DNA of 45,559 nucleotides from a bacterium (GCA_020048935.1 JAIFLS010000012.1:1-45559); one strand, 5' to 3'. Counted from the stretch's first letter, positions 6,963-44,359 are shown. A program made the numbers and translations. Notes: generated from the sequence alone by a model not told the origin.

Positions 6963-6980
6963 GGAATGGGAGGGAAGACC

Positions 6981-22852: not shown

Positions 22853-22895
22853 CCCTCGACTCGCTTATTTACGTGGAATTCCTGTCAATTGGTGG

Positions 22896-24530
22896 TCACT
22901 GGGGGAGGGGGGGCGCATCCGTGCGCTTCTGAAGGACGGTGCATATTGCCGATTGGAGGCGTCCTTGCGTGATCGGTTTGGACACGACCAGGTCGACGCC
23001 TGGGATTTCCAGCCCCCTGGCGTTGATCAGATCGCCATACCCGGTCACCAGGATGACCGGCATATCAGCTTTTATACGTTTTGCCCGCGTGGCGACCACG
23101 TCACCGCTCATCTCCATCATCGCCCGGTCTGTCATTACCAGATCGAATGTCCCTGCTGCCAGCCGCGCAAGCCCGGTCTCGGCATCCTCGAATATCTCGA
23201 CGTCGTGTCCTTCCGCCTCGAGAAAGCGTTTGAGAACCTGTAGCGAGGCCGCATCATCGTCGATGACAAGAACACGCAGGAAGGGAATCTCGATCAGGGG
23301 GGGGGGCGTCTTGCTGACTTTCGGGGTTCTGCTTTCCGGCAGCGAGATCGTCACGCAGGTCCCATGTCCCTCGCGGCTCTCGATGGTTATATCGCCGCCA
23401 TGCCGGCGCGCAATGTTGCAGCACATCGCCAGGCCGAGTCCGGACCCGTTTTCGCCCTTGGTCGAGAAAAACGGTTCCATGCAGCGTGCTGCGGTTTCCG
23501 GCGACATGCCCGCACCATCGTCCGACACGCTCAGGTGAATCATCGCATTATCCGCACAGGCGCTGCTGATCCGTATCGTGCCCTCGTGGTCGATGGCATG
23601 TGCGGAATTAATCACGAGGTTGATCAGCATCTGATGCAATTGCGATTCGCTGGCGGACACGTCGGGCGTCTGGCCGATATCGTTGATGATCCGTATGCGT
23701 TTCCCTTCCGCCAGCCAGCCCGTGAGCGTCTGCTTGATAACCTTGTCAACCAGTGGGCGCAGCGCGACGGGCGCGACCGCCCGCGGGGCGTCATCCGAGT
23801 AGAATCCGCGTAGGCGCTGGACAACCGATTGCGCATCCCTAGCGGCCGAAAGCACGGTGTCCAGTATCTCGATCTGCTCCTGCGAGCCGCCATCGGTTTT
23901 TATCTGCATCAGCAGATAGTCGGTTAATCCGAGAATCGGCATGAGGGCGTTATTGAAGTCGTGTGCAATACCGCTGGCCAGTTGCCCCAGGGCGTTCAGG
24001 CGTTCCTGCCGTTCGATTTTCGCGTGGGTCATGCGTACGCTCTCAAGCGCGGCGGTCAACTGGTCGTTGCTCGCCTGCAGGGCCTTCGTGCGTGCGGCCA
24101 CCAGGTCCTCCAGGTCGTGCAGGTAAGCCGCCTTTTCCTGTTCAAGCTGTTTGCAGCGATCATCGGTTGCCTTGATTTTGGCCGCCTTCTCGACGGCACG
24201 ACACAACACGTCGTCAGGGGTCGGTTTGATCAAGTAGTCCGCGGCTCCGTTCCGAACCGCCTCCGCCGCTCCGTCCAGGGTCGGCGCCCCGGTCATCATG
24301 ATTATTTGGGTGGCTAATCCGCGTTGACGGACGGCCTTGAGCAGTTCGATCCCGTCATCGCCGGGCATCACAATGTCCGTCAGGATGACATCGACGTCGT
24401 GTTGCAGTAGTATACCTATGGCCTCTGCGGTGCTTTCCGCCGTTACCACCTGGTGGTTATCCTTCTGGAGGCGTTTCTGCATCATCAGGCGCATCGACAC
24501 TTCATCATCAACAACTAATATAAACGCCAT
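22896..24530 (-). CDS. REC-HisKA-HATPase-REC sensor kinase
   Basis: ATG 24530 is preceded by AGGAGCGTGAT; the track start 24635 adds 35 aa with no RBS. Motifs are ILVVDDEVSM ... ILTDIVMPGDDG, then SGIAHDFNNALMPI, INLVINSAHAI, DDGAGM and GSGLGLAMC, then VLVIDDD ... VMTDRAMMEMSG. Confidence 0.85.
   Translation of the reverse strand: MAFILVVDDEVSMRLMMQKRLQKDNHQVVTAESTAEAIGILLQHDVDVILTDIVMPGDDGIELLKAVRQRGLATQIIMMTGAPTLDGAAEAVRNGAADYLIKPTPDDVLCRAVEKAAKIKATDDRCKQLEQEKAAYLHDLEDLVAARTKALQASNDQLTAALESVRMTHAKIERQERLNALGQLASGIAHDFNNALMPILGLTDYLLMQIKTDGGSQEQIEILDTVLSAARDAQSVVQRLRGFYSDDAPRAVAPVALRPLVDKVIKQTLTGWLAEGKRIRIINDIGQTPDVSASESQLHQMLINLVINSAHAIDHEGTIRISSACADNAMIHLSVSDDGAGMSPETAARCMEPFFSTKGENGSGLGLAMCCNIARRHGGDITIESREGHGTCVTISLPESRTPKVSKTPPPLIEIPFLRVLVIDDDAASLQVLKRFLEAEGHDVEIFEDAETGLARLAAGTFDLVMTDRAMMEMSGDVVATRAKRIKADMPVILVTGYGDLINARGLEIPGVDLVVSKPITQGRLQSAICTVLQKRTDAPPLPQ
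23297..23306 (-). repeat. Poly-C(10) on the coding (minus) strand, encoding TPPPL
   Basis: Ten consecutive G on the + strand were counted at 23297-23306. The tract lies in the linker between the ATPase core and the C-terminal receiver. Confidence 0.9.
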
Positions 24531-24826
24531 ATCACGCTCCTGAGGCAACCAGTATCCGCCGCTTGTCAACTTGACCCCGTGATACCCAGAGTCAACAAGT
24601 GATTCCAGAGTAATACAGAAGTTGAAAGGGCGCAAGCCGGAACTCGTGTGAGCAGCGATTCGCGATTCTTACGATGGAGTCTTCCCGAGTCCATCCTGCA
24701 CGGTTGCGAGAATGGACTCGAACGCGATGGTCTTGGGGAGAATGATCTCGTCGGTTCCGACCTGGTTGCGCCGCGTGGCTTCCTTGTTGCTGACCAAGGC
24801 GGTTTTGTCCGCCACCGCGATTATTA

Positions 24827-25501
24827 TCACCGATTGTTACCCAGGACGTGGGAGGGGGCAGCGGGTTGAACCGATGACAGCATGTCCTTGTCAGCGAGGT
24901 AGACGGCGATGTCGCTGCGATTCCAGTCTTGTTCGCGCATGACGATATCCTGTGCATGCTTGATATCGCGGACATCCTGGTACTGGCCGTTGCTGGACAT
25001 CCAGAATGTTCCGTTATGGCGGCCGATGACGATGGCGTGGGCTTCATTCTTGTTTTTGGCATTGAGGATATACATGCTGGCGTCCAAGCCGCGAGCTAAG
25101 CAGATATCCCGGACTGTGGCTGCGAAATCCTCGCAATCGCCCAGGTGCCGGTTCCAGGTCTCCAGGCTGGTTTGCCAGTGATCGGTGGTGTCCGCGGCGT
25201 AACGGATGCGGGAACTGACGGCCTCGCAGATTGCCTGTGGCGTTGTTGCCGTTACGTTGCGGGCAACCCATGCCGTGACGGGGGGACGCGGGCCGTTGGA
25301 TTGCGGTTCCGCCGCTGACAAGGGAAACGCATTCAACGGCTGCTGCGGTGTTCTTGCCTCTGCATGGCGGGCTTTGTAGGCAGCCCAGGCCGCGCGGAAT
25401 TCCGGGTCTTCGGCGATGGACCGGTTTGAGGCGCTGGCGGGGATCGCGATCAGGATGACACTGGCGGCAATGATTTGCAATGTTCGTCCAGGTTTCTGCA
25501 T
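24827..25501 (-). CDS. Secreted transglutaminase-like / papain-fold cysteine peptidase (BTLCP, LapG-like family candidate)
   Basis: A signal peptide is present (MQKPGRTLQIIAASVILIAIPASA/SN). The Cys motif is GDCEDFA and the His motif EAHAIV lies 32 aa later. The third catalytic residue is not confidently placed. GGAG lies 8 nt upstream of the ATG. Confidence 0.5.
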   Translation of the reverse strand: MQKPGRTLQIIAASVILIAIPASASNRSIAEDPEFRAAWAAYKARHAEARTPQQPLNAFPLSAAEPQSNGPRPPVTAWVARNVTATTPQAICEAVSSRIRYAADTTDHWQTSLETWNRHLGDCEDFAATVRDICLARGLDASMYILNAKNKNEAHAIVIGRHNGTFWMSSNGQYQDVRDIKHAQDIVMREQDWNRSDIAVYLADKDMLSSVQPAAPSHVLGNNR

Positions 25502-25546
25502 CGTTTAGACTCCGTGTTTGCGTGTTGCTTGACGGAGTCTTCTATC

Positions 25547-25561
25547 GCAGTGATCGTGCCA
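25547..25561 (-). promoter_or_regulatory. Sigma-54 type -24/-12 promoter candidate (TGGCAC-gatca-CTGC) reading toward the peptidase gene
   Basis: The minus strand reads TGGCACGATCACTGC against the consensus TGGCAC-N5-TTGC, with GG and GC at the correct spacing. It lies ~45 nt upstream of ATG 25501 with an SD in between. An NtrC-type activator gene is immediately upstream. Confidence 0.5.
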
Positions 25562-25649
25562 ATCTCTTTATTATTTCATAAGATGTTGTTTTACAGTGCG
25601 ATATGATTATTAGTCTGGATGATCCGGAAAAAATACAGCGCATCAGATG

Positions 25650-25665
25650 TGTCCGCAGGCGGACA
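25650..25665. promoter_or_regulatory. Perfect dyad TGTCCGC-ag-GCGGACA, candidate enhancer (UAS) for the sigma-54 promoter
   Basis: The arms are 7 bp with a 2-nt spacer, which is too tight a loop for an RNA hairpin. The dyad lies ~90-105 bp upstream of the -24 element. An AT-rich stretch (25561-25640) separates the two. Confidence 0.35.
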
Positions 25666-25697
25666 GGTCAATGGTCATGTGTTCGAATCCGTTCAGG

Positions 25698-27137
25698 TTA
25701 GCTGGATCCGATATCGTGCGCGGCCATCATGCGGTAGAGCTTGGGTCGGCTAATGCCAAGGAGTCGGGCTGTGGCGGCAACGTTACTGTTGGCGGTGGCC
25801 AGCGCCCGCCGGATAAGGGTTGCTTCCGCCTCTTTGAGGTTAAGTGGCAAATCGCCGTCAGAGAACCGTGCGTCTGCGGCGGGAGGACTGCTGGCCTGCG
25901 GGCTCTCGGTAAGCGGGCCCTCGCAGTGGATATGGTTGGCGTAAATGGTTCCGCCACGGCACAGAATCAGGGCGCGCTCAACGATGTTCCTTAATTCGCG
26001 GACATTTCCAGGAAAATCATGTTTCGCCAGTGCTGCCAATGCCGTGTCATCAAATTCAGAGGGTGGAATCCCCATTTCCGTGGATATCAGTTTATTGAAA
26101 TGGTGTGCAAGAAACGGTATTTCCGTTCTCCTCTGCCGTAGCGGGGGGAGGGTGATGGTATAGCCAGCCAACCGGTAATAGAGATCGGAGCGAAATTTGC
26201 GGTTGGTGATTTGGTCCGCGATATTGGCATTGGTGGCCGCCACAATGCGCACGTTAACCTGTCGAGCCTTCGGGGCGCCAACCGCTGTGACGGCCCCATC
26301 TTCCAGAACCCGGAGGAGTTTTGTCTGCATTTCGAGGGGCATATCGCCAATCTCATCAAGAAAAAGGGTCCCGCTATCGGCAAGCTCGAAGCAGCCTTTG
26401 CGATCGGCAACTGCACCGGTAAAGGCCCCCCTGATATGCCCGAACAGGGTTGATTCAGCGAGTTCGGCCGGCACCGCCGAACAATTGATCGGCACGAATG
26501 GATTACGTGCTCGTGCACTGCCGAAATGGATGGCTCGCGCGATCAGTTCCTTGCCCGTGCCGCTTTCGCCTGTGATCAGGACCGAAGTGGCGGGCGACTT
26601 GCAGATGAGCTGGACATCATGCATCACCCGCTTCATGGCCGGTGACTGGCTGACCATGCCGGAAATCCCGCTGCGTTCGCGTTCCTGCCCGGATAAAAAC
26701 GAGACTTGAGCAGCCAGCAGATCGCGTTCCTCTGCGACCTGCCGGTAACGCAAGGTCCGGCTGATGGTCTGGGTGATCATATCCTTATCAACGGGTTTCT
26801 CGAAAAAATCAAACGCGCCTAGTTTCAGTGCCTTGATGGCGTCCTCTTTGTCGGCGGTTCCGGTAATGACGATCACATCGGTCTGAGGGCTGATTTTCTT
26901 GGCTTTTTCCAGGACATCATGACCGGACAACCCCGGCATGCAAAGGTCGGTGATCAGGATATCAGCGGGCGTGTGCGCCAGGGACTCAAGGCAGGCGATC
27001 GGATCGGTATACACCGTTGAATGGCAGTCAAGCAATTTAAGATAGGATCGGATCGTAATGCCAATGCGCTGGTCATCATCCAGAATCACGACATGGACCT
27101 GGCGCGATAGGGATTTCGCTTCAACTTCCATGGGCAT
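25698..27137 (-). CDS. Sigma-54-dependent response regulator (NtrC family: REC + AAA+ + Fis-type HTH)
   Basis: The REC part reads VVILDDD ... ILITDLCMPGLSG ... FFEKPV. The Walker A is GESGTGKELIARAIH. The sigma-54 contact loop GAFTGA is intact, and DEIGDMPLEMQTKLLRVLE follows. The C-terminal HTH reads NVAATARLLGISRPKLYRMM. Confidence 0.92.
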   Translation of the reverse strand: MPMEVEAKSLSRQVHVVILDDDQRIGITIRSYLKLLDCHSTVYTDPIACLESLAHTPADILITDLCMPGLSGHDVLEKAKKISPQTDVIVITGTADKEDAIKALKLGAFDFFEKPVDKDMITQTISRTLRYRQVAEERDLLAAQVSFLSGQERERSGISGMVSQSPAMKRVMHDVQLICKSPATSVLITGESGTGKELIARAIHFGSARARNPFVPINCSAVPAELAESTLFGHIRGAFTGAVADRKGCFELADSGTLFLDEIGDMPLEMQTKLLRVLEDGAVTAVGAPKARQVNVRIVAATNANIADQITNRKFRSDLYYRLAGYTITLPPLRQRRTEIPFLAHHFNKLISTEMGIPPSEFDDTALAALAKHDFPGNVRELRNIVERALILCRGGTIYANHIHCEGPLTESPQASSPPAADARFSDGDLPLNLKEAEATLIRRALATANSNVAATARLLGISRPKLYRMMAAHDIGSS

Positions 27138-27175
27138 CTCCGGGGTTGTTGCATCTGGCTGGCATTGAAAAACCG

Positions 27176-28704
<1,529 letters not shown>

Positions 28705-28713
28705 ACGGGGTCT

Positions 28714-29193
28714 CTAACTGAATTTGAGCAGCGCGACCACCGGATTGCCATCTGTAAGCAGCTTTACAGCTCCAGGTAACTGCTGAAAGCGCATCACGTC
28801 ATCTGGCTTGATCGCGGTTGCTGAAGGAGCCGAAAGTAAAAACGTGGTTTCTACCCCGAAGAGGGTTGCCGTCAGTGCCCCGGCCACGATATTCGACCAT
28901 TCCTTGATGGCGTCTATCGTTTCCGTATCGCCAACGTCTTCAGGTTCGAGGCCAAGTACATTTGCCGCGATTTCCTTTGCCTGTGCAACCGGCACGGCAA
29001 CCTGCAATTCGCCGCACTGCGCGCTGCCGGTGAAGGCCACCACGGCTGATATATAATCATCGGCGGGGAGGGTGGGGGGGGCATCACCACTGTCGATTTC
29101 GGCAAAAACAAAGGCGAAATCCTCCAACGTGCCAACCAGTGTCTGTTTTAGCGAATCAAGGATCGCATCATCTTGTACAGGTTTCATCTCCAT
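28714..29193 (-). CDS. cheX: CheX-type phosphatase (paralogue 2 of 3)
   Basis: D-x3-E-x2-N is present as DAIKEWSN, with Pro 22 residues after the Asn (LSAP). The size is ~160 aa. Confidence 0.6.
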   Translation of the reverse strand: MEMKPVQDDAILDSLKQTLVGTLEDFAFVFAEIDSGDAPPTLPADDYISAVVAFTGSAQCGELQVAVPVAQAKEIAANVLGLEPEDVGDTETIDAIKEWSNIVAGALTATLFGVETTFLLSAPSATAIKPDDVMRFQQLPGAVKLLTDGNPVVALLKFS

Positions 29194-29248
29194 GCTTGGG
29201 CTCCTGGCTGAGTTTCTCCGGAACGGTGCGCTTGCTTGGGTTCACCCG

Positions 29249-30121
29249 TTAAATGAGTGACATCAGGATGTCCGACTTGGTCGATTCCTCGTGGACTTCA
29301 TCCACGATAAGGGATATATCCGATACGGATAAGCCAAGGCGCTTCCAGACGGCTTGCACACATGCCGGATCAGCAAGATCTCCACCGTCACCGATCTTTT
29401 CGCGATTGCAGATGTAGTTGGCCATGTGGCAAAGGGAGGTCGCTTCCCAATACTCGGGTGGTGCTGAATCGGGATCGTGGTGCCAGAGTATCGGCAGCAT
29501 CAGGTCTTCTGTCATGTTCCATTTGCCGCAAAGCCACCCGCCGAGTGCTGCATGATCGATTCCGGCCGCCTCCAGCTCTGCGCGGTAAAGGCTCATTGGC
29601 GTTGAGCTGGCCAACTCAAGCGCGGCATGGAACTCATCGGCCATGAATTGATCCATGATCAGCTTGCCGATATCGTGGAGCAGGCCGACAAGTCGCAAGG
29701 ACTCGTTGGTATGTCTTTTCTTCAAATTCGGTTTCGCATGATTATTCACGACACAAGCCGCAATCCCTACGCTGATGGAATGCCGCCAGAATTCATCGCG
29801 GTTGAAAGTGCCGCCTTGCTGATTACCGAATGCAGAGAAAATGGACGTGGAAAGGGCAATGTTATTGGTGGCGGTCAACCCCAGGCGGGCCACCGCCTGC
29901 TGCACGGACTGTATTTCTACCCCGCCCGCATACAGGGATGAGTTCACGACCTTGAGGATCCGTGCGGTAATCGCCGGGTCGTCCTCGATAAGGTGTGCAA
30001 TCGATTTTGCATTTGAATTCGGGTCGCGTACGGCAGCCGACAGCTTGTTCATAACGAGCGGTAGTGTCGGCAGGTTGCGTACGCCGTTCAGGATATCGAT
30101 GATTTCGTTAATGCTTTTCAT
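29249..30121 (-). CDS. HDOD-domain protein (paralogue 4 of 4)
   Basis: Motifs are LPTLPLVMNKL, LIEDDPAITARILKVVNSSLY, IQSVQQAVARLG, FWRHSISVG and GLLHDIGKLIM. Confidence 0.85.
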   Translation of the reverse strand: MKSINEIIDILNGVRNLPTLPLVMNKLSAAVRDPNSNAKSIAHLIEDDPAITARILKVVNSSLYAGGVEIQSVQQAVARLGLTATNNIALSTSIFSAFGNQQGGTFNRDEFWRHSISVGIAACVVNNHAKPNLKKRHTNESLRLVGLLHDIGKLIMDQFMADEFHAALELASSTPMSLYRAELEAAGIDHAALGGWLCGKWNMTEDLMLPILWHHDPDSAPPEYWEATSLCHMANYICNREKIGDGGDLADPACVQAVWKRLGLSVSDISLIVDEVHEESTKSDILMSLI

Positions 30122-30165
30122 TAGCAGCCGCAGCCTTTCTGATGGGATTGCGTATGAGTTGTCAA

Positions 30166-30567
30166 TTAATCTGTTGTGGTGTTCTCGGGAGTCTTGCCAA
30201 GCAGGCGCGACATGATATCGCGAATGCCTTCGGGCGTAAAGGGTTTGTTTAGATATTCACGCACACCCCGGGCCTTGAGCTCGCGCATGCGCATCTCGCT
30301 GCGGTCGGTGCTGACAATGACCACAGGTGTTTCCTTTAATTTCCCTTGACGTTCCATTTCCTCGACCATCTCGACCCCGTTCATCACCGGCATGTTAAGG
30401 TCGGCAAACATCAGGTCAATCCATTGGGCATCGAGTATGTCAATGGCTTCACGCCCGTTGGTCGCCTCGAAGATCTCACCGATATCCTCGCCGGTCATGC
30501 GTACCGCACGTCCGACGACTTTGCGTACAATTGCGGAATCATCAACAATTAAAATATTGTAAGCCAT
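30166..30567 (-). CDS. cheY: CheY-like response regulator
   Basis: [12 protein letters not shown] ... MFADLNMPVMNG ... IVSTD ... YLNKPFTPE are CheY-like motifs. The protein is 133 aa. Confidence 0.85.
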   Translation of the reverse strand: MAYNILIVDDSAIVRKVVGRAVRMTGEDIGEIFEATNGREAIDILDAQWIDLMFADLNMPVMNGVEMVEEMERQGKLKETPVVIVSTDRSEMRMRELKARGVREYLNKPFTPEGIRDIMSRLLGKTPENTTTD

Positions 30568-30596
30568 CGGATGTGCTCCTGTATTCTAGCAAGTAT

Positions 30597-31484
30597 TTAT
30601 GTCTTGTCGCATTCGGGTTGGATGATCGAATCCCATTCATTCATTTTCTCAAGCGTGATGCTGGCAACCTGCTCAATATCCTGGGAGCGTAGCCCCAGCC
30701 TGACCGCCCCATCTTCGGTGACGATATACCGGAATCCGTCAATCCCGTCACCCACGCCAAGACTATATACCAGCGTATCGGCTAAATGCACCATTAAAGC
30801 GGTTTCCCGGTACTCCGTGGCTAAATTCGGGTGGTGGTGGTGGTTCACAATGGCGATCAACTCCTCTGGGAAGGCCCACTTTTCCATCAACCATGCGCCC
30901 GCCTGTGGGTGACTGACGCCTAGAATGTTGATTTCAATCTGATCAAAGGCGGCGTCGGAATCACGCAATTGGGCGTCAAATTCACGGCGGTTCTCCTGTA
31001 CGAACGGGTCTAGCACGATTTTTCCCATATCATGCACGAGCCCTGCCGTGAAAAGCATTTCCTTCGGGTGACGTCCAAGGCTTAAAGCCAGTGTTTCGGC
31101 GGTCAGGGCGACGCCGATCGAATGCTTGAGCAGCGTATGCGGTTCCAAGTCGTAGCCGTCGAGTTTCATGGCCAGGTGTGAGGCAAGCCCCTGTGCCATG
31201 ATTATGCGAAACAGCCGTTTCGAACCCAGTCGCACAAACGCCTGTTGCAGCGAATCGATCCGCTGTGATCCTGAAAACGCGGCAGAATTGACGGCTTTGA
31301 GGATATTCATGGTAATGCCGGGATCGAAGCGTACGCTATCGGCAAGTTGTTTGAAATCCAGTTCCGGATCGTTTGCGTGTGCCATCAGGTCCTTGAGCAT
31401 GGCTGGCATCCGAGGATGCACATCCACGGCCTTGTGAATGCGTTCGAGCGTGATGTCCTTGTCGTGTTTTGTTTTTTTGATCAT
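30597..31484 (-). CDS. HDOD-domain protein (paralogue 3 of 4)
   Basis: Motifs are SVRFDPGITMNILKAVNSAAF, IDSLQQAFVRLG, LLKHSIGVA and AGLVHDMGKIVL. Confidence 0.85.
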   Translation of the reverse strand: MIKKTKHDKDITLERIHKAVDVHPRMPAMLKDLMAHANDPELDFKQLADSVRFDPGITMNILKAVNSAAFSGSQRIDSLQQAFVRLGSKRLFRIIMAQGLASHLAMKLDGYDLEPHTLLKHSIGVALTAETLALSLGRHPKEMLFTAGLVHDMGKIVLDPFVQENRREFDAQLRDSDAAFDQIEINILGVSHPQAGAWLMEKWAFPEELIAIVNHHHHPNLATEYRETALMVHLADTLVYSLGVGDGIDGFRYIVTEDGAVRLGLRSQDIEQVASITLEKMNEWDSIIQPECDKT

Positions 31485-31487
31485 GCT

Positions 31488-31967
31488 CTAGAACTCACTT
31501 TCCACGCCGGAGGACCGAAGTGTGCAGCGCCCGCTGCCGATTTCGAGCCTTAACGTTCTTGATAAGGAGCCGCCGACCTGCTCGGCCTTGATCATCAATC
31601 CGTTTTTCCACAGGATCTTACGAAGCACCGTGTGGTTACGCTCCCCGATTCGGAAGAGGTTGCTGTTGTCCAGAATCCGTGCGCAACCGGCGACCTTTAT
31701 TATGGCGCGCGATCGGTTTACGCCGAGATCGAAGAGCATGGTGAGGAATTTCATCATTCCTGAATCAACAAACATAAACGGCTTCACTTCCGCTTTCTGG
31801 GGGTCAACGCTCGCGATCGGCAGCATGCAGTGAATGATGCCGCCTACCTGCACGCCGGGGTCGTATATGGCAACGCCTACGCATGAGCCCAGTGAGTAGG
31901 TGACCAGGACGTCATCGGGTTTATTCGAAACCTTACCGTCGGCTATATCAATTATTATCTGACTCAT
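31488..31967 (-). CDS. cheD: CheD deamidase, second copy
   Basis: Motifs are SLGSCVGVAIYDP and GGIIHCMLP. It overlaps cheR by 4 bp. Confidence 0.85.
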   Translation of the reverse strand: MSQIIIDIADGKVSNKPDDVLVTYSLGSCVGVAIYDPGVQVGGIIHCMLPIASVDPQKAEVKPFMFVDSGMMKFLTMLFDLGVNRSRAIIKVAGCARILDNSNLFRIGERNHTVLRKILWKNGLMIKAEQVGGSLSRTLRLEIGSGRCTLRSSGVESEF

Positions 31968-32782
31968 TTTATGTACACCGACGGTTTAACGCTGCGGAAA
32001 TTCCCCAGCATGCCCGATAAGCTTTCCGCATGCCCGACCATCAGGATGCCGCCGGGTTTCAATAAGCGCCATATCTCATCGAGCAGTCCTTTCCTGACTT
32101 TGTTATCGAAATAGATCATGACATTGCGGCAGAATACAATATCGAACGGGCCTTTCATCGGATATGGCGGTCGCGCGAGATTCAAGCGGGCAAAGGAAAG
32201 CATGCGGCGCAGTTCATCATTCACGACATAGCTGCGGTTGGCGGCGTCTGCCGGTTCTTTCCTGAAGAACCGGCGGGTCATGGATTCGGGCACCTTTTCG
32301 AGATGCCGCGGTTCGTAGCGACCGGCTTTGGCAACATCAAGCGCGCGCGTGGAAATGTCCGTGGCCAGAATCTTGAAGTCGCTAACGTCGGGAATCGCGG
32401 CTCTTGCCGTCATGGCGATGGTATAGGGTTCCTCTCCTGTCGAGGAGGCGGCGCACCAGATGCGATACGAGCGCTGGCCGCCGCCGTGCCATTGCTGGAG
32501 CAGCTCGGTGAGCAACTGGAAGTGATGTTCTTCACGAAAGAAGTAGGTGACGTTGGTGGAAATGGCGTTAAGCATCTCGACAAGCTCGTCGCCGTCCTTA
32601 TCGTCCTTTACCAGACGATAATACTCCTCATAACGGCCAATCCCGAGCGCTCGCATGCGTTTCCCCATGCGCGAGGCCACCAGCGCTTCCTTCTGCGGAC
32701 CCAGATGGATGCCTGCCTTGTCGTAGACAAGCTCGCAAAACCGGCTGAACATTTCGGCACTTAAATTTTCATTATTATTCAT
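31964..32782 (-). CDS. cheR: CheR methyltransferase, second copy
   Basis: Motifs are TNVTYFFRE, IWCAASSTGEEPYT, FCRNVMIYFD and GGILMVGHAE. Confidence 0.93.
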   Translation of the reverse strand: MNNNENLSAEMFSRFCELVYDKAGIHLGPQKEALVASRMGKRMRALGIGRYEEYYRLVKDDKDGDELVEMLNAISTNVTYFFREEHHFQLLTELLQQWHGGGQRSYRIWCAASSTGEEPYTIAMTARAAIPDVSDFKILATDISTRALDVAKAGRYEPRHLEKVPESMTRRFFRKEPADAANRSYVVNDELRRMLSFARLNLARPPYPMKGPFDIVFCRNVMIYFDNKVRKGLLDEIWRLLKPGGILMVGHAESLSGMLGNFRSVKPSVYIK

Positions 32783-32964
32783 GCGGGCTCAAGATTATGT
32801 GTAAACCGGTTCGTTATCAACCATAAAGAATGGAAAAAACATACAGGGTTGCGTAATTTGATTTATGGCGTTATGTTTATAGACGTTGGTGAACATGTGG
32901 CTCTCTTTCCGTCAGGCAAGTTCGCCGTTTCAAGTCGAATATTATAAGAGGGAGTTTGGGCAGT

Positions 32965-34005
32965 ATGAACGATACGAATGATGCCGGGAGCACGTCTCCG
33001 TTGGGGCGCGACGGTGTGGGGCGCTGTGCGGTTGCGTGTCCGATGTGCGGGCATGTGCAAACGCAGTACCGGTTGAATCCACGCATGTACTGGTATAACG
33101 ATCTTGATCTGGATCGCAAGCCTTCTGGTTTCCAATGCCTGAAGGGGCTTGCGGGGCTGTATCCTCCGCTTTATGATTTGTGGCATTGCCCGAAATGCCA
33201 TTTTACGACGCATAACCGGACGTTTCCCGATCCGCTGAAAAATGTGTTCATCGAAAAAGGGCTTGTGCAGAGGCACTTGGCGGAAGCGGCCAAGCCGGAG
33301 ACGGCCTTTTCGCGCGTGTGTGAGGTACTCGGGGCGGATCAGAATATCGATAAGGTCGATTTTGAATCCGCTATCCGCTGTGCGTTACTGGCCGTTTATT
33401 TCGACACCTTCATCGTCGGACTCTTGAGGCAGGGCTATGCGGCGTTGGCTCGAAGCTGCTTAAGGCTGGCGTGGTTGCACCGTGACTGGGCATCAATGGA
33501 TGCTGATTACGATTCCAAGAGCACGGCATCAAGAGCTAAGCTCGAAAAGCTTGCCGTCTATTGGTCGGATATTCCCCGATCAGAGAATGATGCCTTGAGG
33601 TTGGCCTGCGTTCATTATGAGGCCGCCCTGAACGAAGCGTCTGTTGAAAATGATCCCATGGAAACGGCTACGATTCTCATGCATTTGGCGCGAATTTGCC
33701 TGCAGATGGGGGATACAAGCTCGCCCGCCAAGCATCTGGAGGCATGTCGCCGCGGTGCGATGGAAGAGCAAAACCGACTGGCTGCGGTCATGCACGAGGA
33801 TGATCGGCGCCGAGAACTGCCTGAAGATGAACGAGGTCAACTGGTTTCCGCCAGCCGGCGAATCAAGACGATGATTGATGACTGTGGCGACCTTCATGCG
33901 GAAATCCGCCGTTTGCAGGCAACGACGAAGACGACGGGAACGTCAAGTCAGGTGAAAAGCCCTGAAACGAAGAAAGGGTTGCTTAAAGGGTTTTTCGGTG
34001 GGTGA
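32965..34005 (+). CDS. Zinc-ribbon plus helical-repeat protein, DUF2225-like (from memory)
   Basis: Two CxxC pairs (CPMCGH ... CPKCHF) flank YPPLYDLWH. A helical TPR-like remainder follows, with a basic/charged C-terminus. ATG 32965 is preferred over TTG 32956 on RBS spacing. The gene lies 24 bp upstream of fliO. Confidence 0.5.
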   Translation: MNDTNDAGSTSPLGRDGVGRCAVACPMCGHVQTQYRLNPRMYWYNDLDLDRKPSGFQCLKGLAGLYPPLYDLWHCPKCHFTTHNRTFPDPLKNVFIEKGLVQRHLAEAAKPETAFSRVCEVLGADQNIDKVDFESAIRCALLAVYFDTFIVGLLRQGYAALARSCLRLAWLHRDWASMDADYDSKSTASRAKLEKLAVYWSDIPRSENDALRLACVHYEAALNEASVENDPMETATILMHLARICLQMGDTSSPAKHLEACRRGAMEEQNRLAAVMHEDDRRRELPEDERGQLVSASRRIKTMIDDCGDLHAEIRRLQATTKTTGTSSQVKSPETKKGLLKGFFGG

Positions 34006-34029: not shown

Positions 34030-34521
34030 ATGTCGGGTGCTAATAGCTCCGGCATGAGATTGAACTTTTCTCGATATTGTCGCCCAGCGCTTCTTCTTGT
34101 TGTGATATTGCTTTCGATGCGAACGGCGCTTTGCGCCGACCAAACGAATGCAAATGACAAGGCCACGGCGTCGCGAGAGGTGCCCGCCTGGGTCTCGCAG
34201 TCATCCAGCGGTTCCGCTGATACGCTGGCCCGGCCCGGCAGTTATGGCACTTTACGCTCGATGGCGGCGTTGCTGGCCGTGCTGGGCGGGTTGTTCGGGG
34301 TGCATGTGCTTCTGCGCCGACGCGTTGTGCGATGGTCCAGCCCTGATCTTCAGTCGTTGCGCGTGTTGGCCCGAAAACGGTTCGGTGCACGGCAGGAACT
34401 GGTTGTGGTCGAATGGGAGGGGCAGCGCCTGCTCCTGGGGACGGGACCTGGTTATATTACCCGACTTAGCCGTATGGCGTCGGCACCAATCCCGCAGGGA
34501 GCAAAGGAACAGGATTCATGA
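34030..34521 (+). CDS. fliO: Flagellar export protein FliO (candidate)
   Basis: The single TM is MAALLAVLGGLFGVHVLLRR, followed by LRVLARKRFGARQELVVVEWEGQRLLLGTGPGYITRL. An ATGA overlap links it to fliP. The N-terminal ~70 aa are atypically long. Confidence 0.6.
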   Translation: MSGANSSGMRLNFSRYCRPALLLVVILLSMRTALCADQTNANDKATASREVPAWVSQSSSGSADTLARPGSYGTLRSMAALLAVLGGLFGVHVLLRRRVVRWSSPDLQSLRVLARKRFGARQELVVVEWEGQRLLLGTGPGYITRLSRMASAPIPQGAKEQDS

Positions 34522-35351
34522 ACGGCCTCTGGTCTAGCTGTGCTTTCTCTCTTGTGCTTCGTATCCCTGTGCTCGCGATTGCGCTGGTTGTGCTTTCGTT
34601 AGGTGCGCAGCGTGCTTTTTCGCAGGATGCGGGGGGCATAACGGCGCCCGCCTTGAGCGGAATGTCCAGTCCGGCGGGGCCGCTAGGGGTCCAGATTCGT
34701 TTTGACGGGGGCGAATCTCCGGAGTCGCTCTCAACAGGGATTCGGATCCTGATCATGATGACCGTGTTGTCTCTGGCTCCATCGGGTTTGATCATGTTGA
34801 CAGGTTTTACGCGTATTCTGATTGTACTGAGCATCGTCAGGCGCGCGATCGGTCTCCAGTCAGCCCCACCGAATCAGCTTATTGCCGGGTTGGCCATGTT
34901 CCTGACGTTTTTCGTAATGCGTCCCGTATTCGAAGAAATTCATAAGAATGCCTGGGAGCCGTTGCGTGCCGGTGCGATTAGCGACATGGAGGCATGGGAT
35001 CGGGCGGCGGCACCGCTGCGGACTTTCATGCTGCGGCAGAGCGGTGAGTCGGAGTTGCGCTTGTTTCATGAGTTGGCAAACGAGCCGATCCCCGAAAAAC
35101 CGGAAGAGGTTAAGCTTAGTGTGCTAGTGCCAGCGTTCATGGTCAGTGAATTGAAAACGGCTTTTCAGATGGGGTTCCTCGTTTGGCTACCTTTTCTAGT
35201 GATTGATCTTGTCCTGGCGTCTTCGTTGATGGCATTGGGGATGATGATGCTGCCGCCGATGATGATCTCGTTGCCCATTAAAGTCTTGTTCTTCGTGCTG
35301 GCGGACGGGTGGACGATTGTGATTCATGGGTTGGTAAAAAGCTTCTTGTGA
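34518..35351 (+). CDS. fliP: Flagellar type III export apparatus protein FliP
   Basis: Motifs are ILIMMTVLSLAPSGLIMLTGFTRILIVLSIVRRAIG, APPNQLIAGLAMFLTFFVM and AFQMGFLVWLPFLVIDLV. Confidence 0.95.
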   Translation: MNGLWSSCAFSLVLRIPVLAIALVVLSLGAQRAFSQDAGGITAPALSGMSSPAGPLGVQIRFDGGESPESLSTGIRILIMMTVLSLAPSGLIMLTGFTRILIVLSIVRRAIGLQSAPPNQLIAGLAMFLTFFVMRPVFEEIHKNAWEPLRAGAISDMEAWDRAAAPLRTFMLRQSGESELRLFHELANEPIPEKPEEVKLSVLVPAFMVSELKTAFQMGFLVWLPFLVIDLVLASSLMALGMMMLPPMMISLPIKVLFFVLADGWTIVIHGLVKSFL

Positions 35352-35375
35352 TTGATGCGTGAAAGGTGAGCGACT

Positions 35376-35639
35376 ATGACACCACAAATGGCATTGGAAT
35401 TATCTAACCGCGCGATGATGATCGCGCTACAGCTATCCTTGCCGATGCTCTTGACCGCCATGATTGTCGGCGTTGTGGTCAACATCTTTCAAACGATAAC
35501 CTCGATTAAGGACCAGAGTTTGGCGTTTGTTCCCAAGATCCTGGCTGCGGCGGCGGTAACGGGGATTTCGATGCCCTGGGGCATCCAGATGATGAGTGTC
35601 TATTTTCGCGATATGTACCAGCTCCTGGGTGGGCTGTAG
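35376..35639 (+). CDS. fliQ: Flagellar export protein FliQ
   Basis: The protein is 87 aa. Motifs are LPMLLTAMIVGVVVNIFQTITSIKDQSLAFVPKI. Confidence 0.93.
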   Translation: MTPQMALELSNRAMMIALQLSLPMLLTAMIVGVVVNIFQTITSIKDQSLAFVPKILAAAAVTGISMPWGIQMMSVYFRDMYQLLGGL

Positions 35640-35641
35640 TC

Positions 35642-36418
35642 ATGACCGTGCTGCTGGGGGATTATCCGGTTGTCCTGTTAATGGTGTTCTTCCGGGTGAG
35701 TGGTGTCCTGCTGGTTCTGCCGTTCTTCGGCATCCCGGCGGACAGCGGGTGGTTGCTGGCGGGAGCTTCGCTGCCGTTGACGCTACTTTTCGCCAGCGTA
35801 ATTCCTCCCTCCTGGAGTGCCGCAGCCGCCGCCCTGACCACAACGGGCGACTTCGTGCTGGCGATTTTTGGCGAAACGATGCTGGGCGCGGCGATCGGGT
35901 TGGTTTGCGGGATTTTTATTAATGCTTTCGTGGTTGCCGGTGAACTTGCCAGCAGCGGATGTTCGCTGTCAATGGCCGAGGAACTGGACCCGGAAACCGG
36001 CGAGTCCTCGGATGTGCTGACACAGGTTTGGCGCATGCTTTTCCTGGTTACGGTGCTGGCAATCGATGCGCACCTGATGGTCTTCCGCATCCTGGCGCAC
36101 ACGTTCGAGCAACTACCCGTGCCGTGGGTCGGTTGGGTGGACGGCGGACGCGACCTGGCATTGCTCGGCGGCACTGCATTCCGTGCAGGGGTGTCGATCG
36201 CGCTGCCGATTATGCTGGTTTCATTGCTGGTCAGTATCGGTATGGCCTTGATCGCTCGCATGGCCTCTGGGTTTGATGTCATGTACCTCTCGCTGCCATT
36301 CCACTTACTACTCGGATTGAGTGTTTTTGCACTTACCTTGTTGCTGGGTGGCGGACTCCTGCGCACTATGGCATATCAGATGCTATCATCCTTGTCTCGG
36401 TTCCTGGGATGGTATTGA
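35642..36418 (+). CDS. fliR: Flagellar export protein FliR
   Basis: This is a polytopic 258-aa protein directly after fliQ. The opening FFRVSGVLLVLPFFG is typical of FliR. Confidence 0.88.
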   Translation: MTVLLGDYPVVLLMVFFRVSGVLLVLPFFGIPADSGWLLAGASLPLTLLFASVIPPSWSAAAAALTTTGDFVLAIFGETMLGAAIGLVCGIFINAFVVAGELASSGCSLSMAEELDPETGESSDVLTQVWRMLFLVTVLAIDAHLMVFRILAHTFEQLPVPWVGWVDGGRDLALLGGTAFRAGVSIALPIMLVSLLVSIGMALIARMASGFDVMYLSLPFHLLLGLSVFALTLLLGGGLLRTMAYQMLSSLSRFLGWY

Positions 36419-36463
36419 TCATCGTGATGCATGTGGGGTTTTACCCCATGAAAAGCAGGGGTT

Positions 36464-37600
36464 ATGGAAGGCAAAGAAGGCAAAAGCGAGAGAGCGACCA
36501 GTAAGCGGCGCTCTGATCAGCGTGAAAAAGGCAATCTGGCCGTATCGCAGGAAATCATCACGGTGGCCGTATTATTCCTGACTGTGATCCTGCTCCGACA
36601 GGGATTCCCTTCGTATCTGGCTGGAACTCGCCGCATGCTTGAAGTCAGTTGCATGGCGATGACTGCAAATGACGCATGGAGCGGAATTTGGTTGCAGCAG
36701 CAATACTGGCAGGGACTCGGAGCTGTCTTGCGCGTTATCGCGCCGCTATTGAGCGGAATCCTGCTGGCGGGGATTGTCGGCAGCGTCGGCCAGACGGGCC
36801 CCTATTTTAGTTGGGAGGCTTTTCAGGCTGGCGGCCTCAAGGCGCTTGACCCGATCAAGGGGGCCAAGAAGCTATTCTCGTTCAAGTCGGTGACCAAGCT
36901 GCTGATGACGCTGGCGAAAATTGGCTTGATCGCGGGTGTCATGACCCTTATTTGGCGGCGCAAGTGGATGACAGTTGCCCAGTTGCATGATTTTGACTTG
37001 AGTTCGGCGGTCGGCTGGATGGGGCATAATCTCTATACGTCGGTCATGGCGATTGTCGTGTTGGCGATCTGCATTGCCGTCGTGGATTTCGTGATCACCT
37101 ACCGTCGGCATGAGAAAAGCATGATGATGTCCAAGCAGGAGGTCAAGGATGAGCGCAAGCAGTACGAAATGAAACCCGAGGTCAAACGGGCGCAATTTCG
37201 CAAGATGCGGTCATTGACCATTTCCAGGATGGTGGCGGAAGTTCCGAAAGCGACGGTTATCATCACAAACCCGACGCGGGTGGCGGTGGCGATCAAGTAT
37301 AATCCCGCCGAGATGGATGCACCCCAGGTTGTCGCCAAGGGCTTGCGCATCCGGGCCATGCGCATTCGCGAACTGGCGGCAAAGCACGGTATCCCGATTG
37401 TGGAGCGCCCGCCACTGGCACGCGCCTTGTATCGGTCGGTGCCGACGGGGCGGTCTATTCCCGCAGGGTTGTTCGAGGGTGTTGCAGAAGTTCTGGCGTA
37501 TCTGCATCGGTTGGGGTACCGGCTGGAAGGAATTGCGGGACAGAAGGTTCCGGCGGGAAATTCCGATAAGCAGGAAGGACGAGGGGAGTCATGGCTCTAA
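36464..37600 (+). CDS. flhB: Flagellar export switch protein FlhB
   Basis: The N-terminus is SERATSKRRSDQREKGNLAVSQE and four TM segments follow. MSKQEVKDERKQYEMKPEVK is present. The autocleavage-site region reads VIITNPTRVAVAIKY, with N269/P270 at nt 37268-37273. Confidence 0.93.
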   Translation: MEGKEGKSERATSKRRSDQREKGNLAVSQEIITVAVLFLTVILLRQGFPSYLAGTRRMLEVSCMAMTANDAWSGIWLQQQYWQGLGAVLRVIAPLLSGILLAGIVGSVGQTGPYFSWEAFQAGGLKALDPIKGAKKLFSFKSVTKLLMTLAKIGLIAGVMTLIWRRKWMTVAQLHDFDLSSAVGWMGHNLYTSVMAIVVLAICIAVVDFVITYRRHEKSMMMSKQEVKDERKQYEMKPEVKRAQFRKMRSLTISRMVAEVPKATVIITNPTRVAVAIKYNPAEMDAPQVVAKGLRIRAMRIRELAAKHGIPIVERPPLARALYRSVPTGRSIPAGLFEGVAEVLAYLHRLGYRLEGIAGQKVPAGNSDKQEGRGESWL

Positions 37601-39690: not shown

Positions 39691-39691
39691 G

Positions 39692-40906
39692 ATGAAGATC
39701 CGCCGTTATAAAGGCTCGAGTCGCGAAGAACTCTACCAGTTGATTAACAAGGAGATGGGGCCGAACGCGGTCGTCGTGGCTCCAGAGACTACGGGTGGGG
39801 GGCTATTGACGCGCGGCAAGAAGTATGAATTGATTGCGATTCTGGAGGATGCGGATGAGTCGGGGGCGTCAATCGCAAAGGCGGCCCCTGCGGGGGGGGC
39901 GGCCGACCCTGCGGTCGCAGACGATATGAACCGGTGGCAGCGTATACAGACCAGGCAGTGGCGCGAACTGCAAACGAAGATGAGTCAAATCCAGAAGACC
40001 GTGGATACGTTGCAGGCCGGGCCTCATGCCCCCGTCGGCGTTGCGCCGGATTCCCTGCCTGAGCATGCGGCACTGTGGGACTCGCGTTTCGTTGAATGGG
40101 CAAGGCGGGAAAAAATGGAACTGCTGGACGCCGATGCGCAACAAGTACGCGCTATCCTAGGCGATTCCCTGCCGATCGATGAGCATTTCCAGTTTAAGGG
40201 ACAGCAGAAAAAGCCGCATATTATTGTCCTGATCGGTCCCACCGGATCCGGCAAGACTACGACATTGGCCAAGATGGCCGCAATCTGTGCGCATCAGGAG
40301 CGTTTGCGTGTCGGTATCGTCAGTATCGATACCTACCGGGTGGCGGCGGTCGATCAGATCCGCGAGTATGCCTCGCTGCTGGATATGGAGTTACGCGTTG
40401 CGTTCTCGGCGGACGAGGCGCGTGTTGCGATTGCAGAGCTCGCGGACAACGACGTGATCCTGGTGGATACGCCAGGCCGCACCCATTTTGATGAGATGGG
40501 GCTTGCCGTCAGTCACAAGGTCCTGCGGGGAATGGGGGAAGTGACGGTCTTGTTAACGCTTCCGGCGACCTTGAGTATCAACGATCTGGCCGATACGCTG
40601 CAGGGATTCAAGCGCTTTCAGCCGCGCTATCTTGTCGTGACGAAAGTGGATGAGACGCGCCAGCCGGTTCTTTTCACGGCATTGCCTTTCGAAACGGATT
40701 TGAAGGTTGCGTTTGTGACCAATGGGCAGCGGGTCCCGCAGGATATTTTCCCCGGTGACGCCGAGCGGATTGGCGCGCTACTGATGCCGTCGCGAGGGAG
40801 CGTTGAGCCGCCGCCCAAGCCGTTCAGTTCGGTTTTGCAAGACCGCGTCGACAGTGTTCACGCAACGCGTGCCCGTGCCGCGGATGATGCCGGAGGCAGA
40901 CAATGA
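39692..40906 (+). CDS. flhF: Flagellar SRP-type GTPase FlhF
   Basis: The MKIRRYKG start is typical; an alternative ATG lies at 39683. The G1 box is GPTGSGKTTT, G3 is DTPGR and G4 is TKVDET. Confidence 0.9.
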   Translation: MKIRRYKGSSREELYQLINKEMGPNAVVVAPETTGGGLLTRGKKYELIAILEDADESGASIAKAAPAGGAADPAVADDMNRWQRIQTRQWRELQTKMSQIQKTVDTLQAGPHAPVGVAPDSLPEHAALWDSRFVEWARREKMELLDADAQQVRAILGDSLPIDEHFQFKGQQKKPHIIVLIGPTGSGKTTTLAKMAAICAHQERLRVGIVSIDTYRVAAVDQIREYASLLDMELRVAFSADEARVAIAELADNDVILVDTPGRTHFDEMGLAVSHKVLRGMGEVTVLLTLPATLSINDLADTLQGFKRFQPRYLVVTKVDETRQPVLFTALPFETDLKVAFVTNGQRVPQDIFPGDAERIGALLMPSRGSVEPPPKPFSSVLQDRVDSVHATRARAADDAGGRQ

Positions 40907-41832: not shown

Positions 41833-42140
41833 AGGCACTCTTATGTCAGATTGCATTGATTGTAGGCGGGATCGTGGCCGCCCTGTCGCTTGGGGTTAAC
41901 TTGCTACGGGATATGGAGCTGTTCACGGCGGTTTTCCGCGCCATCCTTGTTTTTATCGGTACCGTCACTATCATTTTTCTCTTCCTGCATCTTTTTTCTG
42001 TGATCCTGGTTCGTTTTGTTGCCGAACAGGTGGTCCAGCAACGCAGTCATGCCGATGACGAACAGAATAAGACAAAGCAAGCCGGGGCCTTTGTGCGCAC
42101 ACGCGCCGGAACGGCACCAAAAGCGATTGAGTCGAAATGA
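41829..42140 (+). CDS. Small two-TM membrane protein, unknown function
   Basis: The protein is 103 aa with two hydrophobic helices (IALIVGGIVAALSLGV and ILVFIGTVTIIFLFLHLFSVILV) and a basic tail. ATGA overlaps occur at both ends, with the flhG stop and the fliA start. Confidence 0.65.
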   Translation: MKALLCQIALIVGGIVAALSLGVNLLRDMELFTAVFRAILVFIGTVTIIFLFLHLFSVILVRFVAEQVVQQRSHADDEQNKTKQAGAFVRTRAGTAPKAIESK

Positions 42141-42910: not shown

Positions 42911-42939
42911 GCCAGGACGTGGTAGAAACGAAGGATGCG

Positions 42940-43239: not shown

Positions 43240-43246
43240 CGGTTTT

Positions 43247-43753: not shown

Positions 43754-43781
43754 GAATCGGTCCTTGCTGTATTCGTTGGTG

Positions 43782-44162: not shown

Positions 44163-44331
44163 AAGCTCTCCATCTGTGTTGGTTTTCAGAGAAAATCATC
44201 GCGGGCGGCAAAGATTGTGTAAGTACGCAGTAGAGTATTAGACGAAGTTCAATCAGAATTCAATCATTAAAAACGAGGGCGTAAACGGTGAAGTGATTGG
44301 TAAGCCCGGGGTGTTATTGCCGGTTTGCCGG

Positions 44332-44346: not shown

Positions 44347-44359
44347 TAACAGTCAAGGC

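Follow-up and report, generated by a model that had tools for sequence, protein, structure and literature searches.

Why do genes for HDOD, one of the commonest bacterial signalling domains and one without a known mechanism, recur inside chemotaxis (Che) operons? The question is posed by a stretch of 45,559 nt of bacterial DNA (GCA_020048935.1 JAIFLS010000012.1:1-45559; hereafter 'the window', meaning the whole stretch), in which all long open reading frames (ORFs) were annotated with Pfam, giving a picture of densely packed signalling genes (Table 1). Four genes within 45 kb encode HDOD proteins, HDOD1 to HDOD4, each scoring far over the Pfam PF08668 gathering score of 22.9 bits and each lying in a signalling operon, as an earlier reading made from the DNA alone (the sequence-only reading) had said. 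The three gene orders given there also match the Pfam annotation: cheD-HDOD-cheY-cheX in Che cluster 1 (+ strand), cheD-HDOD-cheY-HDOD-cheX-REC in Che cluster 2 (- strand; REC, receiver domain) and small ORF-HDOD-hybrid histidine kinase (HK)-cheA2 in a kinase operon. The range at issue, 28714-31484, holds cheX2, HDOD4, cheY2 and HDOD3 only, and cheD2 lies just outside it. We propose, with somewhat less than even confidence, that a distinct metal-binding HDOD subfamily, which we call GY-type, is an integral accessory of CheD/CheX chemosensory pathways, where it bridges CheD and the CheY encoded in the same module.

The sequence-only reading had argued that an order repeated in two independently oriented operons points to a functional unit rather than chance. 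Within the window that argument falls away. The best in-window match of every cluster 1 component is its cluster 2 counterpart (identities of 38% for CheR, 52% for CheB, 34% for CheD, 30% for HDOD1/HDOD3, 31% for CheY and 25% for CheX), so that the two clusters are ancient paralogues; their shared order therefore counts as one event, inherited once, and the test against chance must come from other genomes.

GTDB species genomes were scanned with a profile of Che-linked HDODs, giving 80 loci, and a second scan of metagenome contigs gave 80 more; the loci were annotated with hidden Markov models built from the window and related loci. We found cheD immediately 5′ of the HDOD gene in 13 of the 160 sampled HDOD loci. 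When the window and all fetched loci were counted, cheD preceded HDOD in 21/21 unfused neighbour pairs, with REC and CheX within the next few genes in 16 of these and REC then CheX directly in 11. The full cheD-HDOD-REC-CheX module was found in KSB1, Krumholzibacteriota, Phycisphaerae and Syntrophaceae genomes, among others, and cheD-HDOD-cheY-cheX was also recurrent in Desulfuromonadales and Desulfobulbaceae. Geothermobacter ehrlichii has the order cheA-cheW-cheR-cheB-cheD-HDOD-cheY-cheX, and a Desulfobulbaceae metagenome-assembled genome (MAG) has the same order with mcp replacing cheW, both with extra CheX paralogues. The neighbourhood survey that the sequence-only reading had suggested, of HDOD beside CheY and CheX, thus finds the synteny kept in several phyla, and it is this cross-phylum synteny that upholds the claim of a functional unit: judged by gene order, the unit cheD-HDOD-cheY-cheX is real, functional and conserved from phylum to phylum.

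The two window modules have relatives of their own. Homologues of HDOD1 at 40-74% identity number several hundred; those with names are from Desulfuromonadales, Desulfobulbaceae and Syntrophobacteraceae, and the orthologous context of HDOD1 is present in loci L005, L007 and L010. HDOD3 orthologues are sharply bounded, at 40-68% identity and in the same context, with the next matches at ≤34%; two loci whose HDOD3 orthologue is 54-58% identical (L001 and L003) read cheR-cheD-HDOD-REC-HDOD-cheX-(HATPase-REC)-cheB. The best match to the window in the GTDB scan was a KSB1 protein, at 43%. No CheC-family gene was found beside cheD in any module locus, Pfam calling CheX only.

On the evidence of gene order and gene fusion, CheD is the most constant partner of GY-type HDODs. 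Single-ORF fusions with CheD N-terminal and HDOD C-terminal (written CheD~HDOD) were present in 12/160 sampled loci, 8 of them confirmed by Pfam, and came from Desulfarculia, Desulfosarcina, Desulfatitalea, Desulfobacterales, Desulfobulbaceae, Syntrophobacteraceae, Bacteriovoracaceae and metagenome bins. They retain the catalytic Cys and His of CheD together with the HDOD metal ligands. In cluster 1 the TGA stop of cheD1 overlaps the ATG of HDOD1 as ATGA (window 6114-6117, +), and in cluster 2 cheD2 and HDOD3 share a reading frame with only TAG and one codon (AGC) between them (31484-31490, -); a single substitution at the cheD2 TAG would yield a CheD~HDOD fusion like those of other lineages. 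Both window CheD proteins have the catalytic Cys and His, with GSC and H-x-x-LP motifs, and both fall under the NCBIfam equivalog cut-offs, the best being the Thermotoga type at ~101-103 bits against 240.

This linkage belongs to one kind of HDOD. The sequence-only reading had treated the four window HDODs as a single class, but they are of three kinds (HDOD1 with HDOD3; HDOD4; HDOD2). We define the GY-type by G-Y ~41 residues before the HD dyad and by the Thr in F-T-x-G-L-L-H-D; HDOD1 and HDOD3 have this signature, and HDOD2 and HDOD4 are without it. In HDOD3 numbering, G110-Y111 occurs in 100% of 31 CheD-linked HDODs against 11-14% of 131 others, and T146 in 97% against 28% of the same sets. 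Across the two scan samples, CheD linkage was seen for 24/33 GY-type HDODs and for 0/107 others (Fisher p = 6e-20). Nine GY-type HDODs were without cheD, at least four of them beside or fused to REC (L036, L057, L107 and L115). The GY motif was present in 120/120 top HDOD1 homologues and in the first 46 HDOD3 matches (its own protein and orthologues), and in 0/120 HDOD2 homologues. A quick neighbour-joining tree of 102 HDOD domains grouped CheD-adjacent and CheD-fused domains together, in an HDOD1 and an HDOD3 clade, and placed HDOD2 and HDOD4 outside them, HDOD2 with kinase-linked HDODs. NCBIfam holds no model specific to these HDODs and matched them only with the generic HDIG domain.

A link to the module CheY is suggested by rarer fusions. 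A profile of CheD-linked HDODs (alignment A3), run against 1.84 billion representative proteins, gave matches in 55,436 representative clusters. Two of the first 150 matches were multi-domain proteins, both confirmed by Pfam. One, P0427, is HDOD~REC and lies in an NCBI genome assembly (L170) as mcp-cheA-cheW-cheR-cheB-cheD-[HDOD~REC]-cheX, and the other, P0418, is REC~HDOD and lies on a Logan contig (L171) as cheA-cheW-mcp-cheR-cheB-cheD-[REC~HDOD]-cheY-cheX. Elsewhere, therefore, HDOD is joined to a receiver in the HDOD1/HDOD3 slot, on either side. The proposal of the sequence-only reading that HDOD partners phosphorylated CheY (CheY-P) gains from these fusions in the post-cheD slot, but its model had omitted CheD; its further proposal, HDOD as an 'output of CheY-P', stays an inference.

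The module CheYs also differ from a motor CheY. A neighbour-joining tree of small receivers divides them into two clades, in parallel with the HDOD1-type and HDOD3-type clades; CheY1 has the fused REC of P0427 as its sister, and CheY2 falls inside a clade of RECs that follow HDOD3-type genes. A separate 'canonical' clade holds CheY3 of the window and E. coli CheY along with the second CheYs of L010, L014 and L033, three clusters that each contain a module CheY and a canonical CheY. Identity to E. coli CheY, taken against a manually entered reference sequence, is 33% for CheY1, 26% for CheY2 and 46% for CheY3. CheY3 carries DWNMPNMDG, whereas CheY1 and CheY2 lack the combination of DWNMPNMDG, KPF and high similarity to E. 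coli or Thermotoga CheY expected of a canonical motor CheY; both retain the acidic pocket, the phospho-Asp, the T/S and the K. The cheY3-cheX3 pair (43247-44162, -) lies between fliA and the flagellin gene, without an HDOD. By these sequence features CheY3 is probably the real motor-binding CheY, which would leave CheY1 and CheY2 free for other targets. The single-domain receiver at 888-1304 pairs with the N-terminal REC of P0418 in the neighbour-joining tree, and may be a second receiver talking to HDOD1.

CheX belongs to the same unit. The D/S-x3-E-x2-N active-site motif defines the CheC/CheX family; CheX1 and CheX2 each have a single D-x3-E-x2-N motif and score 33.2 and 39.9 bits against a Pfam cut-off of 27. 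That CheX resets the signal, as the sequence-only reading had supposed, appears reasonable since the phospho-acceptor residues of the module CheYs and the D-x3-E-x2-N of the CheXs are kept. HDOD is also joined to CheX in part: L103:6159-6911 and L106:3374-3901 encode an N-terminal HDOD half (5-88 of 196 Pfam positions) fused to CheX, and these two che clusters also hold a full-length HDOD followed by cheB. In L103 cheD precedes that HDOD, and the L106 contig begins too near the HDOD gene to show its upstream neighbour.

What kind of protein is the HDOD itself? Neither the four window HDODs nor a 24-sequence alignment (A2) varies in the metal ligands H, HD, H and HH, which in HDOD1 are H110, H141, D142, H182, H206 and H207. 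In PDB 3HC1 five His and one Asp bind two iron ions (PMC12075610), and HDOD1 to HDOD4 keep a metal site of this five-His, one-Asp type, for which metal binding is predicted. The fold was assessed with a structure model for HDOD3 and by sequence for HDOD1, HDOD2 and HDOD4. The AlphaFold2 model of HDOD3 (predicted local distance difference test score, pLDDT, 88.4) has helices only, and its top Foldseek matches were 9QZK, 3HC1, 3M1T and 3MEM (E = 1e-8 to 3e-10; template-modelling (TM) score 0.70-0.74); by sequence, the best solved structures for the HDODs were 3M1T, 3HC1, 9QZK (SadB) and 1VQR (Cj0248). The GYP motif (HHExxDGxGYP) that would follow the HH pair is absent from all four, one of which reads HHDPDSAPPEY, and Pfam HD_5 did not match them, so they are not HD-GYP enzymes. 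Nor did HDOD1 to HDOD4 give any CheC or CheX Pfam match. A candidate 'REC-HDOD beside cheD' in L152 proved to be a true HD-GYP regulator, with HHEKLDGTGYP and a Pfam HD_5 match. A conserved S-x-QQA stretch, considered as a mimic of the receptor site that CheD modifies, was ruled out, since all HDODs have it, CheD-linked or otherwise, and since it misfits the spacing of methylation sites.

We infer from these arrangements a physical link of the GY-type HDOD between module CheY and CheD, in which the HDOD would be a functional analogue of CheC in the CheC-CheD-CheY-P loop of Bacillus and Thermotoga. The module CheY would be phosphorylated by CheA (CheA1 in cluster 1, CheA2 in cluster 2), and binding of CheY-P to HDOD would change the hold of HDOD on CheD, or its positioning of it; CheD so changed would alter the receptors, by deamidation or demethylation, with kinase activation, and CheX would dephosphorylate CheY-P and reset the loop. 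The di-metal pocket of five His and one Asp may be structural or may add a redox or metal input. There are precedents for the separate steps. In B. subtilis the CheC-CheD interaction is strengthened by CheY-P, and CheC, binding CheD more tightly with CheY-P, controls the action of CheD on receptors (PMC3513319). Response regulators of REC-HDOD build exist (PMC4114195), and SadB, an HDOD protein, is a non-catalytic adaptor that works without ligand binding (PMC12075610). The wider statement, that in many non-model phyla CheD has a GY-type HDOD, in place of CheC, as its partner under CheY-P control and that the di-iron pocket may add a redox or oxygen input, we offer as a tentative possibility, more doubtful than otherwise.

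Several points weigh against a bridging role. HDOD and CheC have unrelated folds, so membership of the CheC type fails and the likeness would be functional only. Several CheD~HDOD fusions have housekeeping genes around them and neither cheY nor cheX within 5-6 kb; control by CheY is therefore not universal, and CheD and HDOD can act as a pair even where no dedicated CheY gene lies alongside. Some module loci (L005 and L007) have several CheX paralogues, one of which could be the real partner of CheD. Both scans used peptide patterns from CheD-linked HDODs and stopped at 600 raw matches, which makes the frequencies obtained from them enriched rather than unbiased estimates, and the trees of small receivers and HDODs, made by quick neighbour-joining, carry no support values. 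Lastly, the full conservation of the metal ligands suits an enzyme or a sensor no worse than a pure adaptor.

Because the metal site is fully conserved, two rivals stay alive: an enzyme controlled by CheY-P and a sensor of redox state or metal. If the HDOD were an output enzyme, a metal-dependent hydrolase or HD-type di-iron oxygenase activated by CheY-P and acting on some small molecule or nucleotide, CheD would only dock it at the receptor array. This would suit the invariance of all six 3HC1 di-iron ligands (PMC12075610), the REC~HDOD and HDOD~REC proteins, whose architectures are those of receiver-controlled output domains, and the tail of the Foldseek matches, which includes the HD enzymes PgpH and PhnZ. 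The HDOD domain of DVU0330 has weak phosphodiesterase activity on bis(p-nitrophenyl) phosphate (bis-pNPP), but DVU0330 failed on cyclic di-GMP (c-di-GMP) and the other substrates tested, and GsmR was without activity (PMC4114195). No HDOD has a known physiological substrate, the GYP motif is missing from all four window proteins and SadB functions with no ligand bound; nor would an output enzyme by itself explain why the fusions keep the catalytic Cys and His of CheD. We regard it as unlikely. A sensor role, in which the di-iron pocket would sense O2, NO, redox state or iron and signal through CheD and CheY as an intracellular energy-taxis or aerotaxis input in anaerobes, also draws on the conserved site. 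Most of the named module lineages belong to Desulfobacterota or to candidate phyla recovered as MAGs, which live without oxygen, and cluster 1 starts with a methyl-accepting chemotaxis protein (MCP) ending in hemerythrin, another iron-based sensor domain. These grounds are purely circumstantial, and the same ligands are found in the non-Che HDODs sampled and are therefore not specific to the Che-linked subfamily, which makes a sensor improbable in our judgement.

The simple model of the sequence-only reading took HDOD as the terminal target of CheY-P, an alternative to the flagellar switch, with CheX resetting the signal and CheD a mere neighbour. It would account for the HDOD~REC and REC~HDOD fusions in the module slot, for the divergence of module CheYs from the canonical motor CheY, and for the GY-type HDODs without cheD, often beside or fused to REC. 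It leaves CheD unexplained: the 12 CheD~HDOD fusions, most of them without a nearby cheY or cheX, the 21/21 cheD-then-HDOD adjacencies and the exclusive linkage of CheD to the GY subfamily all speak for CheD as more than a neighbour, and we give this model little credence. One might finally suppose no functional link at all, HDOD genes being passengers kept in signalling operons, since the domain is very common (the 55,436 representative clusters) and occurs in many unrelated contexts, such as L006, where a GY-type HDOD lies among unrelated genes. Gene order kept across phyla, independent domain fusions with CheD, REC and CheX and the Fisher test on CheD linkage strongly disfavour this view, to which we attach hardly any weight.

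With the GY-type HDOD as the proposed bridge between module CheY and CheD, the other two window HDODs take separate places. HDOD4 was seen only in the close relatives L001, L003 and L008; by that distribution a narrow clade gained it, 3′ of cheY, as a second CheY-associated HDOD specific to the lineage. HDOD2 is the mainstream kind, with 3700 matches at E <= 1e-20 in many phyla. The trio of small ORF, HDOD and hybrid HK is kept in L008 (80% identity) and L009 (51% identity), with homologues of the small ORF directly 5′ of HDOD at L008:9664-10014 and L009:7655-8011. ORFs matching the 116-aa ORF also lie 5′ of a non-GY stand-alone HDOD, mostly abutting it, in 14 further loci (L111, L019, L018, L034, L109, L099, L104, L042, L037, L145, L110, L026, L053 and L035). 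As gene order has it, the small DUF3391-like ORF and an HDOD of the HDOD2 type are a second, separate conserved HDOD gene pair, spread over many unrelated genomes and joined here to a hybrid kinase. The pair is reminiscent of a DUF3391/HD-GYP protein split in two. HDOD2 has 285 aa in its database copy, so that its true start may lie ~six codons 3′ of 11881.

Other architectures appeared among the HDOD matches. P0051, P0059 and P0060 join HDOD to PF05157 (T2SSE_N), the c-di-GMP-binding MshEN domain, and P0449, of 602 aa, has two HDODs in tandem. P0056 and ~40 Treponema-type HDOD proteins, two of them named Treponema by NCBI, are ~495-506 aa long with N-terminal ~200 residues without annotation.

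Cluster 2 is without a cheA of its own. In L008, a closer relative found through its 80%-identical HDOD2, the downstream part of the cluster 2 order is kept to the end of the sequence fetched, and the HDOD2/cheA2 operon is directly convergent to the cluster 2 genes. Given this convergence and the lack of a cheA in cluster 2, the best reading joins cheA2 and cluster 2 in a single Che system. Compared with L008, the window has ~9 kb of extra kinase genes separating cheB2 from the cheA2 operon. The REC at 28228-28704 is 59% identical (tblastn) to residues 281-410 of a 411-aa protein of L008, and it matches the C-terminal receiver of the 409-423 aa HATPase-REC proteins of relatives, so that the kinase-like part has been lost in the window. 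A scan of 25000-33200 gave 9 promoter-like sites against 5.8 ± 2.7 in shuffled sequence, no excess, and 8 terminator-like sites against 9.5; operon limits there are not defined beyond the short intergenic gaps.

Table 1 Genes of the window, in order of position
Feature	Coordinates	Strand	Annotation and remarks
MCP C-terminal fragment ending in a hemerythrin domain	3-866	+	Pfam; first gene of the window, directly 5′ of cluster 1
REC, single-domain receiver heading Che cluster 1	888-1304	+	Pfam Response_reg 63.8 bits
cheA1: two Hpt stretches, dimerisation domain, HATPase, CheW-like domain	1346-3730	+	Pfam
cheR1, methyltransferase	3693-4571	+	Pfam CheR 194.7 bits
cheB1, methylesterase	4568-5626	+	Pfam CheB_methylest + REC; 52% identity to cheB2
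cheD1, receptor deamidase family	5629-6117	+	Pfam CheD 74.6 bits; motifs GSCVAV, VHVALP
HDOD1, GY-type	6114-6962	+	Pfam HDOD 150.7 bits; motif LAGYES
cheY1, module CheY	6966-7379	+	Pfam REC 76 bits; DD, D57, T/S87, K109 present
cheX1, CheY-P phosphatase family	7397-7906	+	Pfam CheX 33.2 bits; motif DMVAELVN
REC/HK protein, first in the kinase operon	8570-11533	+	Pfam
Small ORF, 116 aa, weakly DUF3391-like	11559-11909	+	Pfam DUF3391 E = 9.6e-4, under cut-off
HDOD2, mainstream non-GY	11881-12756	+	Pfam HDOD 213.6 bits
Hybrid histidine kinase: HisKA, HATPase, REC, Hpt	12738-15038	+	Pfam
cheA2, likely kinase for cluster 2	15067-17676	+	Pfam
REC closing the kinase operon	17724-18212	+	Pfam REC 44.9 bits; kept in L008
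NtrC-type regulator, transglutaminase-like protein, three hybrid kinases (one with a PocR domain)	18178-27137	-	Pfam; downstream of cluster 2
cheB2	27176-28231	-	Pfam CheB_methylest 212.6 bits
REC, 158 aa, after cheX2	28228-28704	-	Pfam REC
cheX2	28714-29193	-	Pfam CheX 39.9 bits; motif DAIKEWSN
HDOD4, non-GY	29249-30121	-	Pfam HDOD 185.9 bits
cheY2, module CheY	30166-30567	-	Pfam REC 86.8 bits; phospho-acceptor residues present
HDOD3, GY-type	30597-31484	-	Pfam HDOD 156 bits, HD 44.9 bits; motif LDGYDL
cheD2	31488-31967	-	Pfam CheD 78.3 bits; motifs GSCVGV, IHCMLP
cheR2	31964-32782	-	Pfam CheR 194.6 bits
DUF2225 gene	32956-34005	+	Divergent from cheR2, immediately 5′ of fliO
Flagellar export genes fliOPQR, flhBAFG, fliA and flagellin gene	34030-45286		Annotation
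cheX3, paired with cheY3	43247-43753	-	Pfam CheX 56.9 bits
cheY3, canonical motor-type CheY	43782-44162	-	Pfam REC 112.5 bits

HDOD knock-outs repeatedly give unexplained motility phenotypes (PMC11813219, PMC11004494), and the question of what HDOD does is now testable: the module names candidate partners in CheD and a dedicated CheY, and a resetting enzyme in CheX, and the natural fusion proteins offer complexes that are already joined for expression. As an annotation marker the GY signature is easy to apply and separates Che-linked HDODs from the rest. The arrangement also suggests how CheD may be regulated in systems that have CheD and CheX and no cheC beside cheD, among them those of Desulfobacterota, KSB1, Krumholzibacteriota and Planctomycetota, where chemotaxis is barely studied. 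Were GY-type HDODs indeed to replace CheC, this would be the first defined molecular role for the HDOD domain and a new adaptation or feedback branch in bacterial chemotaxis. In a literature search we found no paper linking HDOD with CheD, or HDOD with CheX and CheD, and no description of the GY subfamily or its fusions. HDOD, REC-HDOD regulators and the motility phenotypes of HDOD mutants were known already; what is new is an undescribed accessory component of a chemosensory pathway.

Known systems resemble parts of this arrangement. HD-GYP phosphodiesterases of the RpfG type share the HD-superfamily metal site and frequent receiver control, but HDOD1 to HDOD4 are without the GYP motif or the HHExxDGxGYP signature. 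DUF3391 occurs at the N-terminus of HD-GYP proteins, and the small ORF 5′ of HDOD2 weakly resembles it. The group-alpha che clusters of Geobacter, compared here by their description, also contain a stand-alone HD-superfamily gene for which a chemotaxis-like signalling role was proposed (Tran et al. 2008, PMC2577667); the clusters were called Geobacteraceae-restricted, and no CheD/CheY/CheX link, fusions or subfamily were described (PMC2577667).

GsmR of Xanthomonas campestris, which has motility-related phenotypes (PMC4114195, PMC11004494), and DVU0330 of Desulfovibrio vulgaris place an HDOD under receiver control, an architecture shared by P0418 and P0427, whereas in the window HDOD and REC are separate genes of a Che operon and the HDOD is of the CheD-linked GY subtype; GsmR is without the conserved His, and the window HDODs keep all ligands. 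The stand-alone, di-iron HDOD of Geobacter sulfurreducens (PDB 3HC1) is like HDOD3 in fold (Foldseek TM 0.72), length class and ligands but, in the alignment, is without the GY motif. SadB, a YbaK-HDOD protein of Pseudomonas (PDB 9QZK), is the best structural match of HDOD3 (TM 0.74) and a precedent for HDOD as a protein-protein adaptor controlling motility and biofilm (PMC12075610). It differs in having lost three ligand histidines, in carrying a YbaK domain and in targeting AmrZ for proteolysis, outside any Che operon.

Closest in layout is the CheC-CheD-CheY-P module of B. subtilis and Thermotoga maritima. In the window the neighbour of cheD is an all-helical HD-superfamily protein without the CheC fold, cheD comes before its partner where there cheC comes before cheD, and the phosphatase is of the CheX type with a single D-x3-E-x2-N site. 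The likenesses are that the window keeps the catalytic Cys and His of CheD and that cheD there too is tightly coupled to an adjacent partner gene, the partner is also linked to CheY-P and a phosphatase of the CheC/CheX family stands in the operon (PMC3513319).

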